Positions 21,401 to 53,379 of a stretch of 64,000 nucleotides of DNA are shown one piece after another. Origin of the DNA: Octopus vulgaris (taxonomy: Eukaryota); assembly GCA_951406725.2 (NCBI GenBank), contig OX597820.1:60016001-60080000 (forward strand), written 5' to 3'. The translations under genes were made by a program, and so were the position numbers. Under the pieces are notes generated by a model. The model searched no databases. It saw only the letters and a list, made by a program, of their open reading frames with translations, and was not told where the DNA came from. The number at the start of each line of letters is the position of its first letter. Within the stretch, counting starts at the first letter, position 1.

Positions 21401-21759
21401 GCTACGAAATATAAACATTTTTTTTTTCCCCGAAAATTTGATGAAACACATTTAATAGAAATAAATACACTAATAAATTCGAGAAAAATAATTATATATA
21501 TGTGTATGCACATACATACAAATAAATACTTAAAATACAAATATGCGTGTGTGTATGTGCGTGTAAGTGCATATGATGCGCATGTTAGTCGTGGGCAAAT
21601 GCATGTGTGAATGTGTGAACATACATTATATATATTTAAATACATATACACAGTACAAAATACGCGTGTATGATGGGTTGTGTATATAATGAAATAGGAA
21701 TTTATATATTATATATCTACACACAGACACATACAAATATATATGTATACATATACATA

Positions 21760-21765
21760 CGTATA

Positions 21766-21799
<34 letters not shown>

Positions 21800-22027
21800 G
21801 TGTGGATAATATATATCTATATATATGTATAATATACATGTATACATACGTATAATGTATGTATATATGTATGTATGTATATATGTATATATATATATGT
21901 ATGTATGTATATATGTATGTATATGTATATATATGTATGTATATATATATGTATGTATATATATATATGTATATGTATGTGTATATATGTATATATATAT
22001 ATGTGTATATATATACATATATGTATG

Positions 22028-22072
<45 letters not shown>

Positions 22073-22096
22073 GTATGTATATATATGTGTGTATGT

Positions 22097-22137
<41 letters not shown>

Positions 22138-22328
22138 TATACATATTCATATATATATATACATATTCATATATATAAATACATATTCATATATATACAT
22201 ACATGTGTGTATGTGTATATATACATACATATATATATATACATATTCATATATATATATACATATTCATATATATATGTTCATATATATATATACATAT
22301 TCCTATATATATATATATATATATACAT
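21760..22328. repeat. Compound (TA)n/(TATG)n/(TACA)n microsatellite
   Basis: Read directly. It produces the Y/I/M/H-rich spurious ORFs. Confidence 0.95.
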
Positions 22329-22329
22329 G

Positions 22330-22668
22330 TAGGATGTAGGACAAGATACTGTGATAGCCTGGGCTTCCGAGGCCCACAGCTCTTCAATATCCTCCCGAAG
22401 AATCTAAGAGACCTGCATGGGGTGGATGCAGATGTCTTTAAAGTGAAACTGGATCTCTTCTTGTCAGGTATCCCAGATGAACCAACATCACGGCAGGAGG
22501 TGCAGATGAGGGCAGCTGCATCGAACTCTCTCGTGCACCAAATGGCAGTTGCTAAAAAGCATTTGTGAAGTAAAACCATATAGCAACACCAAATGGCGGT
22601 GCCCCAGCATGGCCACAGCTCGTTTGCTGAAACTAGAATCAATCAATCAATGAAACTAGAATCAATCA
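22330..22668 (+). mobile_element. 3' end of CR1-like LINE
   Basis: [49 protein letters not shown] is homologous to 25.6-25.9 kb. The 3'UTR ggcggtgccccagcatggccacagc...ctgaaac is followed by an (AATC)n tail. Confidence 0.8.
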
Positions 22669-22705
22669 TACATATTCATATATATATATACATATATATA
22701 TATAA

Positions 22706-22759
<54 letters not shown>

Positions 22760-22783
22760 TCATATATATATATATATATATAT

Positions 22784-24407
22784 ATCATCATCATCTAATG
22801 TCCGCTTTCCATGCTAGCTAGGGTTGGTGGACGGTTCAACTGGGGTCTGGGAAGCCAGAAGGCTGCACCAGGCCCAGTCTGATTTGGCAATGTTTCTACG
22901 GCTAGATGCCCTTCCTAACGCCAACTACTCTGTGAGTGTAGTGGGTGCTTTTTACATGCCACTGGCACAGGTGCCAGACGAGGCTGGCACACGGCCACAA
23001 TCGGATGGTGTTTTTTATGTGCCACCGGCACTGGTATCACAGCTACAATTTCCATTGATGTTGATCGATTTCGATTTTGATTCTGATTCTCACTTGTCTC
23101 AACAGGTCCTCACAAGTAGAGTTTTGTGTCTCAAGAAGGAAAGGTATGCATAAGTGGGCTGGCTACATCCCAGGTAGAGGTCACGGGTTATGGTCTCACT
23201 TGTCCTACCAGGTCTTCTCACACACAGCATACTTCCATTATTCTCGGTCTCTAGTCATTGCCTTGGTGAGACCCAAAGTTCGAAGGTCGTGCTTCACCAC
23301 TTCATCCCAGGTTTTCCTGTGTCTACCTCTTCCACAGGTTCCCTCAACCGCTAGGGTGTGCCTCTTTTCACACAACTATCTTCATCCATTCTTGCACACC
23401 ACAAATGATGCTTCTTAGGTCCAACTTTTCTCTCAAGGTACTTACACTCTGTCGAGTATGAACACTGACATTACACATCCATCGGAGCATATTGCTTCAT
23501 TTCTTGCGAGCTTATGCATATCCTCAGCAGTCACAGCCCATGTTTCACTACCATGTAGCATGGCTGTTTGTACACATGCGTCATACAGTCTGCTTTTTAC
23601 TCTGAGCGAGAGGCCTTTTGTCACCAGCAGAGGTAAGAGCTCTCTGAACTTTGCCCAGGCTATTCTTACTCTAGCAGTTACACTTTCAGCACACCCACCC
23701 CCGCTACTGACTTGGTCACCTAGGTAACGGAAGCTATCAACTATTTCTAGTTTTTCTCCCTGGAATGTGGCGGAAGTTGGTGTCTGCACATTTTCAGTGT
23801 TTATTGCTCCTGAGCATCTGCCACATACAAAAACTATTTTCCTAGTTAGCCTTCCTTTGACATTGCTACACCTCTTATGTATCCATAGCTTATACTTGGT
23901 GCATCTTATAGAGTTTCTACCTATGCCTTTTCTATAGATCGAGCAGGGCCATCTACCTGAAGGCGTTTGTGATTTGTTTACCTTCCTACTTATTAGGACT
24001 TTGGTTTTAGCTAGGTTGACTCTAAGGCCCTTCGATTCTAATCCTTTCTTCCACACCTGAAACTTCTCCTCCAGTTCTGATAGTGACTCAGCAATTAGAG
24101 CAAGGTCATCAGCATAGAGGAGCTCCCAGAGGCATCCTGTCTTGAATTCCTCCATTATTGCTTGGAGGACTATGATAAATAGGAGGGGGCTGAGGACTGA
24201 ACTTTGGTGGACCCCTACCTCTACCCGGAATTCTTCACTGTACTCGTTGCCAACCCTCACCTTACTAGCAGCGTCCCTGTACATGGCTCGCACAGCTCTC
24301 ACTAACCATTCATCTATCCCTAGTTTCCTCATTGACCACCAGATAAGGGATCGGGGGACCCTGTTGAAGGCTTTCTCCATGTCAACAAAAGCCAGGTACA
24401 GGGGCTT
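22784..24407 (-). mobile_element. 5'-truncated RTE-clade LINE (RT ORF 23442-24380, 3'UTR, (ATG)n tail)
   Basis: Motifs YLAFVDMEKAFNRVPR, GVHQSSVLSPLLF, LLYADDL, NLAKTKVL, FRYLG, and the RTE-typical LHGSETW. The tail reads (CAT)n on the plus strand. Confidence 0.92.
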
Positions 24408-24444
24408 ATATATTCCGTTAAAATATCTTATATACGATTTTTAT

Positions 24445-24546
24445 TTCTTCATTTCCCTGAAGAGAAGATTACATTGTTTTACACCATTTTATTCCTTAGG
24501 AATTATACCAATGATATCTTCGAAACGTGTTTCAGAAGTAAAAGAA
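24445..24546 (+). ncRNA. Degenerate type I hammerhead ribozyme (Penelope-type)
   Basis: CTGAAGA (24457-24463); stem II GAAGAT..CATTG / CAATG..ATCTTC; GAAAC-GTGT-TTC; imperfect stem I ttcttcatttcc / agaagtaaaagaa. Confidence 0.55.
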
Positions 24547-24776
24547 TTTGAATAACACCTGCATTTAACATCATTTATTTATTCATACATATTCATATAT
24601 ATATATATATATAAGAGATAATGGCATCATTGAGACCCAAAGGTGTTAGGTAATGCTGAATAAGTGCTATAGGCAGACCATAGTTAAGTTCCAGATTCGG
24701 TAATATTGCGAATAAAGGGTTCAAAGTTGGTTTTATGTCATAGACACACAAAAAATTCATATATATATATATATAT

Positions 24777-24807
<31 letters not shown>

Positions 24808-24914
24808 TAGATATACAAACAGATAATTAGATAGAGACAGATGTATGTGTATCTATCTATTACTATATGTTAGTGTATTTATATATATATATAGATACAT
24901 ATCCACACACACAC

Positions 24915-25945
24915 AGCTTTTTATAGTGGCCGTCTCAGATATGCCCTCAAATGCCCAGATAGCCACTCTGGCAAACTATGCAGATGATACGAAAGTCTCA
25001 CAGAATATACAGAACCCCAGTGATGTTGCACACCTGCAGCAGGAGTTGGACTCAATTTACAGATGGGCTGAGGATAATCATATGCAGTTTAATGCTGAAA
25101 AATTCCAGGCCCTGCGCTACCAGCATCCAAAACTAAATATTAAACCTACAGGGTACACCAGTCCACAGGGAATTTCAATCCCAGAGCCTAAGTCAGTGAA
25201 GGACCTGGGTATCAACATGAGTGATGATACCTCTTTCCAAGTGCACATTACCAGGATGGCGACAAAGTGCAGACGACTGGCTGGATGGATCCTAAGAACA
25301 TTCAGAACCAGAGATAAGGAAACCATGATGGTCTTCTGGCGGACATTCGTCCTCAGCCGCCTGGATTACTGCTCACAGCTATGGTCACCCACCAGCATAA
25401 GATTAACGACGGACCTTGAAGCAATCCAGAGAAGATTCACAAAGAAGATCGTCTCTTCGCAACAGCTCAGCTACTGGGAAAGGTTGAAACAGCTAAGACT
25501 CTACTCCCTGGAGAGAAGACGGGAGAGGTATGCAGTAATATATGTCTGGAAGATCCTAGAAGGAATTGTGCATTGAAAGCTACACGAATGCCAGAACGGG
25601 ACGATACTGCATGGTGCCAAAGATCCCAGCAATGCCATCACGCTTCAGGACCAGTTACTGCAACAGCCTGGGTTTCAAGGGCCCACAGCTTTTTAATATT
25701 CTCCGAAAGAGTCTGAGGAACTTGCACAAAGTAGATGTAGGGGTTTTTACATCAAAGCTGGACCTCTTCCTGTTGAGAGTCCCAGATGAGCCTACCTCAC
25801 GGCAAGAGATGCAAATGAGGATAGCTATATCAAACTCCATTCTTCATCAAGTGCCACATATTAGAGGAGGCTCCTAGTAATAGCACTGTAGCGCAAAACG
25901 GTGGTGCATCAGCATGGCTGCAGCTCTGAGCTGAAACTTTAAAAA
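24915..25945 (+). mobile_element. 5'-truncated CR1-like LINE (RT C-terminal half, frameshift near 25570)
   Basis: Motifs YADDTK, LQQELDSIYRWAEDNHMQFNAEKF, KDLGI, SRLDYCSQLWSP, LEAIQRRFTK, SYWERLKQLRLYSLERRRER. Confidence 0.9.
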
Positions 25946-26279
25946 GAAAAAAGAAATATATATATATGTACATATATATATGTATATATATATATATATG
26001 TATGTATATATATCTACATATATATATATATGTATATACATATATATATGTGTATATATATATGTATATGTATATATATATACATGTATATATATATGTG
26101 TATATATATATATTTGTATCAAAATGGCTGATCGTTAGTAAGGAAAGACATAAATAAGAAAGAAGAAAGCAAAGGACCACTGGTGAGGTCACAGGAGTGT
26201 GACAAAATAACTCTGGCCAAAATACGATTAATGTAAAAAATAAAATAAAGCTGAAGCAAATCAACACCAAAATGTATGG

Positions 26280-26625
26280 TGCATGGCCGTTGCAAGCACC
26301 ACCTCGACTGGCCTCCGTGCCGGTGGCACGTAAAAAGCACCATCCGATCGTGCTCGTTGCCAGCCTCGCCTGGTCCCCGTGCCAGTGGCACGTAAAACGC
26401 ACCATCTGTCCGTGGCGTTTGCCAGCTCCGTCTGGCACCTGTGTGGGTGGCACGTAAAAAGCACCCACTACACTCACGGAGTGGTTGGCGTTAGGAAGGG
26501 CATCCAGCCGTAGAAACACTGCTAGATCAGACTGGGCCTGATGCAGCCTTCTGGCTTCACAGACCCCAGTTGAACCGTCCAACCCATGCTAGCATGGAAA
26601 GCGGACGCTAAATGATGATGATGAT
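26280..26625 (+). mobile_element. RTE LINE 3'UTR fragment with tandem subrepeats and (ATG)n tail
   Basis: Reverse-complement homology to 22784-23030 and 29157-29525. Confidence 0.85.
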
Positions 26626-26763
26626 TTAAAAAAAAAGATTAGAGATCTATACAAATCAAATTTTAATAAATAAAAAAGTGGGAGGTGGAAACAGTACAGA
26701 ATTAAGTCTAAGACATTTCAGTTTAAGAGGGAATTTAATAAAAGATTATATAAATAAAAATAT

Positions 26764-26805
26764 TAATATTACCAGTTTCGATGTATCTTATCTTATCAAA
26801 TATTA
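26764..26805 (-). ncRNA. Degenerate minimal hammerhead ribozyme
   Basis: Minus strand: TAATAT-TTGATAA-GAT(aagatac)ATC-GAAAC-TG-GTA-ATATTA. Stem I is a perfect 6 bp. The core differs from CTGATGA by two transitions. Confidence 0.45.
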
Positions 26806-27339
26806 GTAAAAATTTATAAAAATTTGAAGTAAAAACAGTCTGTCTGTTGGTCTGGTGGTCAAGAACATGTCTGGAGGTTTTTTGTTGGAGTCTTCTTTAA
26901 ATATAGTTTGATGTAGAGTTCAAAGTATTAGAGAGTGAGAGAAGGAGTGTCTATTGTCTAAAAGAAATCTTTGTGTGTTCTTGTCAAGGGAGTAGCTAAA
27001 AAGCATTTGTTGAATGGGTTTTATGTCCACCTGTGTATGTGTGTGTGTATTGTGTTGAATGTCCTTTCAATATGTTTTGAAACATGACCACCTGTGAGTT
27101 GATGGGTGTGTATGCTGTGAAGAATTTCTCTAGTTGAACAACAGCTCCTTTATAGGATCTAGTGGCTAAAGACATTATCAGGAGGAATCACATCTGGTTT
27201 CAGTTTCGGGGTGTCCCCTACTCCTATAGGAGTAGAATTTTTCTTTTGGGATTGATGTATTCTTTTGAGTGTCTCCATCTGTATGTATGTGTGTGGTCAC
27301 CAGCTGTGTGTATGCGTATTTTTGTGATGTTTTTTTGTG

Positions 27340-28432
27340 ATGCAGACAAACCACAAATCCCTTCAGGTAGATGGCCTTACTCGATATGTAGAAAAGGCAT
27401 AGGTAGAAACTCTATAAGATGTACCCTGTGTAAGCTATGGACACATAAGAGGTGTATCAATATCAAAGGAAGGCTTACTGGGAAGATAGTTTTTGTATGT
27501 GGCAGATGCTCAGGAGCAATAAATGCTGAAAATGCGCAGAGACCAACTTCCACCACATTCCAGGGAGAAAAACAAGAAATAGTTGATAGCTTCCGTTACC
27601 TAGGTGACCAAGTCAGTAGCAGGTGAGGGTGCACTGAAAGTGTGGCTGCTAGAATAAGAATAGCCTAGGCAAAGTTCAGAGAGCTCTTACCTCTGCTGGT
27701 GACAAAGGGCCCCTCGCTCAGAGTAAAAAGTAGACAACATGACGCATGCATACGAACAGCCATGCTACATGGCAGTGAAACATGGGCCGTGACTGCTGAG
27801 GACATGTGTAAGCTCACAAGGAATGAAGCCAGTATGCTCTGATAGATGTGTAATGTCAGTGTGCATACTCGACAGAGTGTAAGTACCTTGAGAGAAAAGT
27901 TGGACCTAAGAAGCATCAGATGTGGTGTGCCAGAGAGACGACTGCGCTGGTATGGTCATGTGGTGAGAATGGATGAGGATAGCTGTGTGAAAAAGTGCTA
28001 CACCCTAGCGGTTGAGGGAACCTGTAGAAGAGGTAGACCCAGGAAGACCTGGGATGAAGTGGTGAAGCACAACCTTTAAAAATTAGGCCTCACCGAGGCA
28101 CTGACTAGTGACTGAGACCTTTGGAAATATGCTGTGCTGGAGAAAACCCAGCAAGCCAAGTGAGATCATAACCTTGTGGCCTATGCCAGGGGTGTAATCA
28201 GCCCACTTATGCATACCTTTCCTTCATTGGATTCTAAACTCTGCTTGCGAAGACCTGTTGAGGCAAGTGAAATCAAAATCAAATTCGATGACTGGCATCC
28301 GTGCTAGTGGGGCGCTAAGAGCACCATCCGAGCGTGATTGTTGCATCCAGCTGTAGAAACTCTGCCAGATCAGTTTGGAGCCTGGTGCAGCCATCTGCTA
28401 GCATGGAAAGCGTACATTAAATGATGATGATG
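27340..28432 (+). mobile_element. RTE LINE 3' fragment (second copy)
   Basis: PSGRWPYSICRKGIGRNSIRCTLCKLWTHKRC...FRYLGDQ and RRLRWYGHVVRMDEDSCVK...GRPRKTW. In-frame stops are present; (ATG)n tail. Confidence 0.9.
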
Positions 28433-47010: not shown

Positions 47011-48447
47011 TTGTTCTGAAAGATCATAATCACGACTCTTTCTCCATAACCTAAATGACTACAAAAAAAAATATATATATAATATCTAAAAAGGTGTCTT
47101 TTACTAAAGTAAACTGGCCAATAAGAGCATTTGTTACAGTCTTGAATGATTATTTCTTATCAGGTTATTCATTATACAGTTGAAGGAACTTTCACTGGCC
47201 CTTACTATATCATCTTGAAGCTGATCCAGATCCCTGTCATCTTTCAAATGTTTTTCTTTTTCTTCATATTAATAGTTTTGTTGTCATTGATGAAGAATTC
47301 ACATGGTCACTCAGCCTGCTAAAAGTAGTAGCCTAATCTTCTTGACACACATTCTCTGCCACCTTAAAAAAGAGGAAGTACACATTATATAAATTTAGAG
47401 ACCATATATCTGTGGGCTTGACTGGAATACTTTTGATCTTAAAACCTGCTCAGTCAGAGCTGACAGGAAGTTAAACAACAAAAAGCAACTTCTATACAGT
47501 TGATTTCTCTCTATATTTTATTTCACCTTCTCATGCATTTCATTCTCACAATCTGCTGATATTGTGGACATTCTCCATGAGCAGAGAGACTCAAAATACA
47601 TCCTACAGGAATGACATATCAAACTACTTTCATTCAATAACAACAACAACAACAATAATAATAATAGTTCACAAAAACATATTCAATTAGGTAATGAATG
47701 ACAGAATGACAGTGAACGTAGTGACACTACACTTGAAATCAGCAATATTTTTACCATGTCTGACATAAGAATTTCCTAAGCTGTTAGTCTATAGATTTCA
47801 TCTGTCCATCTTCACTTAGCAAGCTTCTTATCAGATGGTAACATTGCTGCATGCACTGAGTAAGTCCTCTATGACCCACGTATTATTGACTCAGATGTTT
47901 ACCAGGGTTAGGCTATGTCACCTGACATTTGTTCCCATATATCAACATGCTTGTTGTCAGTTCTAAAATTGCTCACTCATTCATAGATGATACTACTCCT
48001 CACCACTCCTCCTTGACATCTGCACATACATGTCATTGATATGTAACCTAAGCTCATTACACCAAGCCTGCAGGTTCTTCACAAACCTTGAAAATATCAT
48101 GTGGTATATGGTAATGATCCTTTGCATTCTGATTTCAGAGCCTAACTGGGTCAACTTTACCTTTCATAATTCCAAGGTGAATAAAATAATTGCTGGTCAA
48201 GTACTGAGGTGTACGTAATTGACTATGTCCCAGGTGATAGTACCCAGTAAAAGAGTGACTAGAGAATACAAAATTGTACCATCTCCAATAATGAACAATG
48301 TACAGCTGTAACCTTAACTCTTCACTTTACAAAAGTTCTTCATCATCGTAGGTCATTTGAACAATGAATTTGAAATTGGCATCTACAGCCATAGATATAT
48401 TTCCTCAGATACATTCTTTTCTGTTAAGCAGTTCTTCTAAGTATTAA

Positions 48448-48844
48448 GTACAGATGTGGCCATGTGGTTACGAAGTTTGCTTCTCAATTACATGGTTTTG
48501 GGTTCAGCCCCACTGCATGGTACCTTTGGCAAGTGACTTCTATAGCCCTAGATTGACTGAAGCCTTATGTGAGGATCCAGTTGATGGAAACTGAAAGGAG
48601 CCAAAGAAGTCTGTTGTACATGTGTGTGTGTGTGTGTCCTTGTCTTACCATAGTGTGATAGTTGTAAATGAGTGTCACTGTCATACAAGCAGTATCATTT
48701 GTTTCCAGTATTCTTCAAAAACATGTCTGGCTACAAGGAAATATTACCTTCCTTGTAAACAGATGAGAATTGGCAATGGGAATGGCATCTGGTCATAGAA
48801 AATCTGCCTCAATAAATCCCATGCAAGCAAGGAAAGGTGGATGA

Positions 48845-48876
<32 letters not shown>
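48448..48876 (+). mobile_element. Full-length tRNA-derived SINE (RTE-type tail)
   Basis: Same head as 46577, different body, ending ggcatctggtcatagaaaa...cccatgcaagcaaggaaaggtgga(tga)n. Other copies near 1740, 4295 and 39252(-). Confidence 0.8.
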
Positions 48877-48877
<1 letters not shown>

Positions 48878-50214
48878 GTTTCTGTTATAGCCAGCTCATT
48901 TTAAGAGTTAGCAAACATGATAATACAGAGATAGAATCTCCAAAGCATTCATCTAAAAAAAAAAGAAAAGATGATACATTTGATAATGTCCTAAATAAAC
49001 TGTAAATTTACAAAAGATAAGATGACCTCATCTGGAACACTATTTATCATAGGTCTGCTAAGCGATACCAACAATTATATATGTCTAGAAATACACCTCG
49101 TGTTCTCGTGCAAAGTACTTCATTTCATGTTGCTCTGGGATCATTTTGTCATCTGACATGTGGCACCCGGTGAACCTGGTAGGTAATATCGATTTTATGG
49201 AGAGAGTCAGCTTATGTGTACACAAACATTTGATCTCTATAAGCAAATCCTCTGTTGGTTGTTCGGCAATTTCTTGCTGAACTTACATATGTTGTCTAAC
49301 GATGAGAGTCAATGAATGAATGAATGAATGATTGATTGATACGCACACACACACACACACACATACACATACACACATACATACATACATACATGTAAAA
49401 AGTGTCATAGAATTTTTTTTAAATTCTAGAAATTCATTTTATTGATCAAATATTTTTTGTCTAAATGTCAAGAGATACTCTGAAAAATAGAGGCAGCATA
49501 TAAAATATAAGGAACAAATTAATTTGTTAAGAACTAACTTAATTGAGAGAAATGACACAATGACAATGGGATGTGAAGACTGAAATCTTACCATAACAGG
49601 CTTAGTTTTCCTTGCAGCACCAACAAAAGTGGAGAGAAGTATCTCAACACGGTCATTTGACTTATAGCAGCCAAATCTCCCATAAGTTACAATCTGCTGT
49701 CTTGAAAGAAAGAAGACAGACTAGATAATGTAGTCTTGGATATACAAAATCTGAGAGAAGGACATCGTAACCAGGGCTGGAAAATCTTTGATTACTAAAC
49801 TCCTCAGTTACAGCTGAACAGGGCTAAACAATAGCAATTTCATGTTGCCATATACCCAGAAATCACATATTTCAGCATCAATGAAGAGAGTAATAAACAT
49901 ACTGTGGTTTGTTTTCACTGATTTCACTGATGCTGAAATGAAAAGATCAATTCACATTCCACATCTTGGTATTTTTTTTTCTGAACCAAACTTCACCTGA
50001 AGAAAACATTTTTTTTTTCATGATGTAATTGAATTTATTCATCAATAAAAAATGCATCTGCAACAGCTGTAGTGAACCTTTAACACATTTGTGTTCTTAT
50101 ATATATATATATATAATTATTGATAGTAGGGAATATAAAATTCCAAAGCAACAGGGAAAATCAGACTCAATTTAGTAATACTAAATCAGATTTCATGATA
50201 TATTAAATATATAT

Positions 50215-50808
50215 AGAATTAAGATAGAACCTCCATTAAGTAATTCATTAATAATGAAAGATATTATCTATTATAAAATATAAATTTAAATATATTACTA
50301 TTAACATTGTACTAAAAATTTCTATACTGATTAATACACTTTAAAAAGCATACACATTAAAACGACATTATCAATATTGTGCTAAAAATTTCTATACTAA
50401 ATAATACACATTAAAAAAATACACATTAAATTATTATAATGTATACAATTTATAAATGTATAGTGTAATTATAACATCTTTATCTATGTTGTAAATTTAT
50501 TTTATGTTATTGAGACTTGAAGAGTGGCTATGTATCGTTGGATTGAATAATGTTAATTTTTGAGATTATTGATTTTGGTATCATAGATTTGTATACATAG
50601 TCATGAAACGCATGTCATCGTTTTAATGTGTAATATTTAGTATAGAAATTTTTAGTACAATATTGATAATAATGTCGTTTTAATGTGTATTAATCAGTAT
50701 AGAAATTTTTAGTACAATGTTAATAGTAATATATTTAAATTTATATTTTATAATAGATGATATCTTTCATTATTAATGAATTACTTAATGGAAGTGCTGT
50801 CTCTTAAT

Positions 50809-50811
<3 letters not shown>
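50215..50811. repeat. ~200-bp inverted repeat with internal subrepeats (probable Penelope-like LTR remnant)
   Basis: Arms 50215-50416 and 50621-50811. The core 50232-50339 versus 50686-50792 has about one mismatch by eye. The spacer holds a hammerhead-like motif. Confidence 0.85.
50511..50625 (+). ncRNA. Degenerate type I hammerhead ribozyme
   Basis: TTGAAGA (50517-50523); 12-bp stem II GTGGCTATGTAT / ATACATAGTCAT (two G-U pairs); GAAAC-GCAT-GTC (50605-50616); stem I weak. Confidence 0.6.
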
Positions 50812-50844
<33 letters not shown>

Positions 50845-52097
50845 CACATACTAAAGCAGGGCTGGTTTCAGAATCTTTGAAAGATTCAAGTAGTAACAGT
50901 ACTAAACAGTAATGTTTGTTGCCACTTTGCATGGAACAGCTATGCAAAAGTGGCAACAAACATTATTATATATATATAAATACTCTTTAACTAGTTTCAG
51001 CTCGAAATCTGTGGTCATTCTGGGGCAGTTAAACTCCTCAATGGCAGATGTCTTTGATGATGATATAGTCTTAGATATACAATGTCTGAAAATAAGACAA
51101 GGTGGCCGTCAAGTTTTCAGCATCATTGATCATGTTTACTTTTGTAGGACTGGTCTGTAGTTAAATAATGCTCTTGTAAAATCACTATGTTTTCTACCTG
51201 ACTGCAACATATATGTATATATGTATGTAAAAATGTATCTATGTATGTTTGTATGTATGCATGCATGTCTGTGTCCATATATATATATATTATTTGTTTC
51301 AGCCATTTGACTGTAGCCATGCTGGAGCACCATCTTTAGTTGAACAAATTGACTCTAGAACTTAACCTATCGGTCTCTTTTGCCAAACTCCTAAGGTATG
51401 GGGATGTAAACACACCAACATCAGTTGTCATGTGATGGTAGGGGAACAAACACAGACACACAAACACATGCACACACACACACATACAACAGGCTTCTTT
51501 CAGTTTCCATTTTTTAAATCCACTCACATGGCTTTGGTCAGCCTGAGGCTATAGTAGAAGATACTTGCCCAAGGTGCCACACATTGGGACTGAACCCATA
51601 ATCATGTAGTTGGGAAGCAAGCTTCTAACCACACAGCCAGACCTGCACCTGCTACAGAAAAAGACTACATGGAAAAAAAACAAAAAAACACAACGTGAGG
51701 ATGTAGCACATGCAAAGTATTAATAAGATGCTCACAGAAGGAAAAGAGTGGTTGCTTTATGTTTCGAGCACAGCTCTTCTTTGGAAACAGGAAACAGGAA
51801 AGTCTAAAGGAAAAGGAAGAAGGAGGAAAAAATCGCCAACACACACACACACATGTATTTTTTAAGCCTGTTATTAGTGTTGATGTTGTCATTGCTATTG
51901 TTGTATGATTATGAATAAGAAGCAGTTATTCATAATTTTGCATTAAAATATCTTTTTGGAAGTTAAATATTTAAATAGAAATGGAATATTATATATATTG
52001 CATAGATGCATCTATCACCCCTTTGCTCCCAACATCCATATAAATTTTCCTCTGCAGTCTTGGGCTGGTATCACCCTTTTTGCAAAGCGCTTGATGG

Positions 52098-52151
52098 TCC
52101 TACCACTAGCAAAACCAACAAGGTAGCTGGTTGGTTTTGCTAGTGGTAGGA
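52098..52151. repeat. Perfect 22-bp inverted repeat with 10-nt loop
   Basis: TCCTACCACTAGCAAAACCAAC-aaggtagctg-GTTGGTTTTGCTAGTGGTAGGA. Confidence 0.95.
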
Positions 52152-52204
52152 AATGTTTGTGCTAGGAAAGAAAATAGTGGTGTATTTCTGGACATATATA
52201 ATTG

Positions 52205-52810
52205 TTGGTATTGCTTAGCAGACCTATGATAAATAGTATACCAGTTGTGGTCATCTTATCTTTTGTAAATTTACAGTTTGTTTATGACATTATCAAATGT
52301 ATCATCTTTTTTTTAGATGACCTGAGGAAGACTTGGCTGTTATTTCTAGCAGATTGAGTGATGAGAGTCTGCTTTGTTGGTAGATGTGATTGCTACTGAT
52401 TTAGGTTGAGATTGGTCAATCTTGATTGAAAAGACGATGATCAAGGGCATTCCAGCTGAGACCATCCCATTTTTTCAGAGGTATGTATCTCTACATGTGT
52501 TCTTGCCTTACTGAAGACACGGGGGAAGTCTGACTGTTATTTTTAGCCAGGTGAGCGTCCACATAGAGGCTCCCTCTTTGGTTCGTAACAGATACTGTTG
52601 GTGTCATTGCTTAGCCTCTGGTCAGACCTGATTGAGGAGACTGACAATCAAAGGCATTCCTACTGTGACCATCTCATTCTTTTTCCTTAGGTCAAGGAAC
52701 CTAGGATCATATTAGCCAATGTGCCCTTATCTAAGATGGTGAGATTTGATTAGATACATATTTAGGTGCTATTTCTAGCAGGTCGGATGACCATATAAAA
52801 GCTCCTTTCT
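52205..52810 (-). repeat. Three adjacent diverged copies of an old dispersed repeat
   Basis: Each copy has the motif set ggcattccagctgtgaccatc, cattatc.aatgt and ggctg.tatttctagcag. Solo copies near 18300, 18770, 19660, 20470, 47300 and 49650. Confidence 0.6.
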
Positions 52811-53379
52811 TGGTTTGACAAATATCATTGGAAATGACGGGGTGAGATGATTGGTAAACATAGGGAGATAACTCTGATGTTTTTGAAAAATCTTTAAATT
52901 GAATGGAGGGAATGGTTTGCTGACTTGTGAAAGGCAATCGCAAAGCATAATGAATCTTTGAATAGGTGCAGGAGTGGAAGTGTGGTGAAAAGTTTCCCTG
53001 CCAGGCAAGTGTGTTGTACTATAGCCATGGGCTAACCAGAGGCTTGGAAGTGGATTTCATAGATGGAAATTGTAAAAAGCCCATAATATATGTGTGTGTG
53101 TGTTGTATTTATCCACCACCACTAGTTGACAATTGGCGTTGGTTTGCTTACGTTTTCGGAACTTAGCGGTTCGGCAAGAGTTCGATATTAAAAGTACTAG
53201 ACTTTAAAATAAATAAGTACTGGGGTCGATTTATTTTACCAAGCTCTTTAACGTGGTACCACAGCATGGCTGCACTCCAATAACTAAGACAAGTAAAAGA
53301 TAAAGTATTTATATATGCTATATACTAACTTCATCGTTCATGTGGGATGCAATTTTTTTTTTGAAAACTTATAATAATA

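Follow-up and report, generated by a model that had tools for sequence, protein, structure and literature searches.

Penelope-like elements (PLEs) of the Hydra clade are generally shorter than 3 kb and, as described in PMC8557442, combine an N-terminal RWK motif with a GIY-YIG endonuclease (EN) at the C terminus, one lacking CCHH and carrying a CxCX5C linker, CxxC and CxH motifs and DKT; they insert into (TA)n targets and bear a hammerhead ribozyme on the sense strand near the 3′ end. The same account lists an inverted 5′-truncated copy for Penelope-13_HM and calls the role of the hammerhead in endonuclease-bearing PLEs unclear. Both inverted 5′-truncated partners and a one-sided tail have been described for PLEs. 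In the case of Poseidon PAc of the green anole (PMC11167929), a hammerhead lies upstream of two internal reverse transcriptase (RT) start sites that define the tail, targets are AT-rich, and both target strands are nicked and extended in vitro; according to this account, no RNA-seq ends fall at the cut, uncut RNA is the main template, and cleavage is dispensable in vitro. The minimal PLE hammerheads described in PMC4209133 are of type I, with a long helix II, a short helix I and a palindromic stem III, occur as motif pairs on opposite strands, and have been proposed to process precursor RNA; in that paper, Cervera and De la Pena (2014) state that there was no in vivo evidence. Metazoan non-LTR retrozymes (bioRxiv 10.64898/2026.07.22.740005) carry type I hammerheads related to those of PLE pseudo-LTRs (pLTRs) and consist of ORF-less tandem monomers.

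The locus described here lies in a stretch of 64,000 nucleotides of Octopus vulgaris DNA (contig OX597820.1, positions 60,016,001 to 60,080,000), hereafter the window, in which positions 50114-50811 form a single head-to-head insertion: two 5′-truncated 3′ ends of one PLE, within (TA)n. The family to which it belongs has the endonuclease motifs, (TA)n targets and sense-strand hammerhead of the Hydra-clade PLEs (PMC8557442), whose tabulated hammerheads differ in having a stem II of 3-7 bp and a loop 2 of 3-10 nt, against 12 bp and ~57 nt in the octopus family; its tail measures ~100 nt, compared with 30-40 bp in the Hydra-clade PLEs (PMC8557442, Fig. 2 legend). Hydra-1_Obim, an octopus family already published and presented in the same source, is a different one, with a 7-bp stem II, an 8-nt loop and, by eye, a different protein. 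With PAc (PMC11167929) the octopus family shares a hammerhead that precedes two internal RT start sites defining a tail, AT-rich targets and, as proposed below, nicking and extension of both target strands; it differs in that the PAc cut lies inside the ORF, whereas in the octopus family 5′ ends pile up at the cut. The type I fold, long helix II, short helix I, palindromic stem III, opposite-strand pairs and proposed RNA processing recall the minimal PLE hammerheads, although loop II is far longer (PMC4209133). Unlike the non-LTR retrozymes of bioRxiv 10.64898/2026.07.22.740005, the octopus stretch is the truncated end of a coding element.

The clade and the inverted layout are already known, the head-to-head arrangement being ordinary for PLEs. 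The long-loop hammerhead and a pile-up of 5′ ends at a PLE hammerhead were not found in the literature searched, whose coverage was incomplete, and no such pile-up is reported in the portions covered of PMC6765202, PMC6431247 and PMC6962438. A one-sided pile-up at the cut would show the ribozyme acting on templates in vivo and, if true, would provide a purely genomic assay of ribozyme activity usable for any PLE family. It also suggests that cleavage wastes templates by turning them into short dead copies and is not required for insertion.

A family assigned to the Hydra clade, and its coding element

A search of the animal's own genome (2.8 Gb) with positions 50420-50625 as the query yielded 152 candidates; 40 of them were scored and 30 retrieved. 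A query made from the tail yielded 1342. Elsewhere, dispersed copies match 50448-50811 on a single strand, and no arms frame their ribozyme. Their 5′ ends vary continuously. Each 3′ end lies at one of two fixed positions, separated by ~100 nt, and at both the sequence passes into (TA)n (in locus L009, the short 3′ end at +224 and the long one at +321); an insertion preference for (TA)n is seen in the 3′ flanks. A GIY-YIG endonuclease is colinear upstream, 0.55-1.1 kb before the hammerhead, and the RT is reached further upstream in loci of the sister subfamilies B and C, not within one continuous copy of subfamily A, the window's own.

The ORF starts shortly past the long 3′ end (L225). The ORF copies examined are all broken, and the motif order of a single ORF, with the RT followed by a C-terminal GIY-YIG, is seen in L195, L196 and L198-L200. 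Pfam matched the GIY-YIG at E 0.006, below its cut-off, and did not recognise the RT pieces. An RT piece is 33-34% identical to three proteins of 710-724 aa, one of which is matched by the EN piece at E 1e-16. The endonuclease lacks CCHH and shows CTCRDKTRC (the CxCX5C linker), CLLC-TNE (CxxC) and CRH (CxH) in L198 and others; the change from DKG to DKT appears as SDKTRN in L195, with DKS and DET in other decayed copies; and the place of the N-terminal RWK site is occupied by RIKWKA, with K for R. Owing to the gap between EN and hammerhead, the element would be roughly 3.3-3.9 kb long, as estimated from broken copies. Placed by these motifs and its (TA)n targets, with the published alignment compared by eye, the family is assigned to the Hydra-clade PLEs. 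The Neptune clade was rejected, as neither a CX2-5CxxC linker nor CCHH in the EN was found.

The original prediction had read the sequence as a non-coding retrozyme-like unit, and the window copy itself, which has no ORF and a foldback-like appearance, would agree with a MITE or retrozyme that encodes no protein and frames a hammerhead with its terminal inverted repeats. Such an identity is refuted by the colinear ORF; copies elsewhere match on one strand, have variable 5′ and fixed 3′ ends, and extend into EN and RT. Terminal inverted repeats with TSD throughout the family, as in a MITE, were not found; as for a non-LTR retrozyme, the ORF is colinear, and the loci examined held no tandem monomers. 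The Penelope side of the prediction is supported as regards the pLTR, its type I hammerhead, the palindromic stem III and the inverted piece, and what it had named as contrary outcomes (a family without the core or stem II covariation, or MITE termini plus TSD and no Penelope link) was not encountered.

In three oriented loci (L160:1370-1495, minus strand; L169:1200-1400, plus strand; L225:930-1205, minus strand), the same point in the N-terminal part of the ORF is joined to different points near the hammerhead. These joins may reflect a third site of RT initiation, located within the ORF, or a derivative with an internal deletion.

Layout of the window copy

Table 1. Features of the insertion at 50114-50811 and its flanks, in window coordinates.
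Feature	Positions	Strand	Remarks
(TA)n target microsatellite	50098..50113	.	left flank
Inverted 5′-truncated 3′ end of the element (left arm)	50114..50430	-	from the long 3′ end to 5 nt past the hammerhead cut
Tail	50114..50214	-	~100 nt between the family's two 3′ ends; on the left arm only
Junction filler	50431..50447	+	17 nt; by eye it imperfectly repeats the beginning of the right copy
Direct 5′-truncated copy (right copy)	50448..50811	+	begins 170 nt upstream of the cut and reaches the short 3′ end
Type I hammerhead, decayed	50507..50628	+
Stem I, 5′ strand	50507..50516	+
Core, TTGAAGA	50517..50523	+	C3U
Stem II, 12 bp	50524..50535 and 50593..50604	+
Loop II, 57 nt	50536..50592	+
GAAA	50605..50608	+	within GAAAC, from 50605
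Stem III	50608..50615	+
GTC	50614..50616	+
Predicted cut	50616/50617	+
Stem I, 3′ strand	50617..50628	+	G1.1A
Internal 57-nt duplication (subfamily A)	50617..50730	+	unit 1 from the cut site, 50617; unit 2 from 50674
(TC)n(TA)n microsatellite	50812..50842	.	right flank

The inverted arms 50215-50430 and 50621-50811 are identical at 181/189 aligned positions, with two indels of 13-15 nt. The near-perfect inverted arms of ~200 bp noted originally are real; the left one extends ~100 nt further out, to ~50114. The two arms are 96% alike, the next-closest copy reaching 93%, and by eye they have in common variants against the family; being nearest each other and sharing these variants, both arms trace to one event. 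The stretch between them had been regarded as a spacer, of which 50448-50620 in fact belongs to the right-hand copy. It had further been proposed that the right arm begins about 4 nt after the triplet and that the sequence 3′ of the cleavage site was copied back. A link between arm start and cut site is seen at the family level, although the offset is 5 nt and concerns the inner end of the left arm; the idea of copying back fails, since ~100 nt from the 3′ end of the element, present in the left arm, are missing from the right copy. The left arm represents a second cDNA, whose 3′ end reaches ~100 nt further and whose start lies 5 nt after the predicted cut.

Adjacent inverted partners accompany 34/74 copies of subfamily B and 13/25 of subfamily C. 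Judged by eye and not formally counted, most inverted pairs combine a long and a short 3′ end, as in the window.

Three further features of the window were noted. An inverted pair of 136 nt, 93% complementary, lies at 48962-49097 and 52179-52314 and probably represents two copies of a common short interspersed repeat. Directly to the right of the element, 50903-50972 forms a 26-bp hairpin with 88% complementarity. At 21626-27626, stop-free frames of 156-332 aa cluster in a stretch of higher GC, possibly another decayed transposon.

A type I hammerhead with a long loop II

The hammerhead words and the 12-bp stem II with its 57-nt loop were found in the window as originally predicted (Table 1). 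The family core CTGAAGA, a form of CTGANGA, is present at the same place in 25/29 other copies, which excludes a chance origin of the window motif, and in 51/64 motif hits (67 found, 3 dropped as false). With counts pooled across subfamilies, pairs 1-12 of stem II hold in 44-63/64 copies and pairs 13-16 in 14-17; at pair 9, G-C is swapped for A-U in 14 copies. In 36 of the 64 copies, 93% of cells pair, compared with 16-50% in slid registers. Covariation is modest: 3/17 pairs are changed on both sides, a level reached by 189/500 shuffles. Stem III most often takes the form of the palindrome ACGCGCGU, in keeping with action as a dimer (PMC4209133). Judged from its sequence, the family motif is a canonical type I hammerhead, with CUGANGA, GAAA, a UH triplet, G10.1-C11.1 and stems I-III.

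The window copy departs from this pattern by C3U with G8 unchanged, by C11.1U and G1.1A, and by a weakened palindrome (-5.8 vs -13.3 kcal/mol). Changes at C3 impair hammerhead cleavage (PMC11167929). The window ribozyme is decayed and predicted to be dead, as had been suspected. In an Rfam scan of 48000-53000, none of the 26 matches at E<=10 was a hammerhead; we lean towards the view that the 57-nt loop II hides the hammerhead from Rfam, which we hold jointly with the reading of genomic 5′ ends given below. A hammerhead-like sequence of a different family, CTGATGAG...CGAAAC, was observed on both strands at ~1057 of the oriented locus L059.

5′ ends at the predicted cleavage site

Truncation points were counted relative to the predicted cut in subfamily B, which is without the internal duplication that blurs mapping in subfamily A. 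The position range was fixed beforehand, and all 74 exact anchor matches were taken, 3 duplicates of the same element being dropped to leave 71 copies, whose flanks differ. With 28/71 copies stopping at +14..+103, 43 remained at risk, and 24 of these stop in -12..+13, all at -1..+13, where 5.8 were expected for the 26-nt range (P ~8e-11). Other 15-nt ranges in this subfamily reach at most 0.17, compared with 0.56 at the cut. None of the 19 remaining copies stops at -2..-42, an absence that is weak evidence when taken alone (P 0.01-0.07). An alignment artefact was rejected: 700 simulated truncations with real flanks produced no pile-up, 56 true stops at -1..+13 being called as 49. No RNA data set was found for the window stretch; contigs from four presumed RNA runs, compared with a subfamily B copy, were too fragmentary to reveal ends.

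The best reading of this pile-up would be self-cleavage in vivo followed by run-off of the RT. Within the range, the stops form a plateau at +3..+13 with no spike at 0, only 3/24 lying at -1 or 0, which is the main weakness of the cleavage reading. The plateau matches the extent of stem I, which spans 0..+12, and might instead arise without cleavage if the RT stalled on a folded or protein-bound hammerhead, or if the cDNA snapped back at the AT-rich near-palindrome; an inverted partner adjoins 13/24 of the pile-up copies, and many partners likewise end at 0..+30. We consider stalling or snap-back unlikely. In 4 copies, the stem II domain is much the stronger (-17 to -23 kcal/mol, with -0.6 to -5.3 for stem I), yet stem II is a stopping point for none of the B copies, which makes stalling the less probable cause. 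Copies that lack an adjacent inverted partner show the excess too (11/25 vs 2.8 expected, P 4e-5), which argues against this account.

A second account places a transcription start at the pile-up: an internal promoter of the pLTR just behind the hammerhead would yield RNAs from whose capped end the RT runs off, with no need for ribozyme cutting. PLE pLTRs do hold internal promoters (PMC2377424), the ORF starts downstream of the pile-up site, and a one-sided boundary is also expected from a start site. The boundary in subfamily B nevertheless lies within 1 nt of the predicted cut, and in D. virilis Penelope, which serves as an analogy only, the transcription start precedes by 46 nt a 75-nt intron ending at helix I and hence lies well upstream of the cut (PMC2377424). 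We regard a promoter origin as improbable, about to the same degree as stalling or snap-back.

Under the cleavage reading, the layout of the window can be explained by a mechanism drawn from the 5′-end counts and the in vitro behaviour of the anole element (PMC11167929). The enzyme would nick both strands of the (TA)n target, and one cDNA would be primed at each of the two 3′ ends. On uncut RNA, the RT would read through the ribozyme and generate the right copy; on cut RNA, it would run off at the new 5′ end, with 0-13 nt lost during joining, and generate the left arm. The two cDNAs would then be joined via their 5′-truncated ends. That these head-to-head PLE ends in (TA)n arose in this manner, the short-stopping arm having been copied from hammerhead-cut RNA, we consider likely.

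The other subfamilies show smaller excesses. In subfamily C (25 matches, 2 dropped as references), 5/10 copies at risk stop at the site vs 2.1 expected (P 0.04), but 3 stops fall inside -2..-42. In subfamily A, sampled as 32 copies anchored near the 3′ end and classed partly by eye, 7/25 at risk stop at -12..+13 vs 2.5 expected (P 0.01), or vs 4.8 expected (P 0.20) when the expectation takes account of the internal duplication; by eye, 24/29 exact first-unit matches read through the ribozyme. The duplication starts exactly at the cut nucleotide, a point in favour of the cleavage reading; it also makes 5′-end mapping ambiguous there. Given this weak result in the window's own subfamily, the window arm may stop at the cut by chance, and the chances that it came from a cut template are about even.

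Approximately 48% of the subfamily B copies that reach the site stop there. Taking these counts together with the long-loop motif, we think it somewhat more probable than the contrary that genomic 5′ ends are fossil traces of hammerhead cleavage that occurred in vivo in an EN-bearing PLE, in which about half of the templates copied by the RT as far as the ribozyme would have been cut and run-off would both feed the inverted arms and have made the duplication.

A separate locus, L206 (G000:C3, ~14927050-14927430), contains four to five tandem units of the 57-72-nt repeat. Its first unit starts at the cut nucleotide beside a short inverted piece, an arrangement consistent with a series of template jumps starting at a cut 5′ end.
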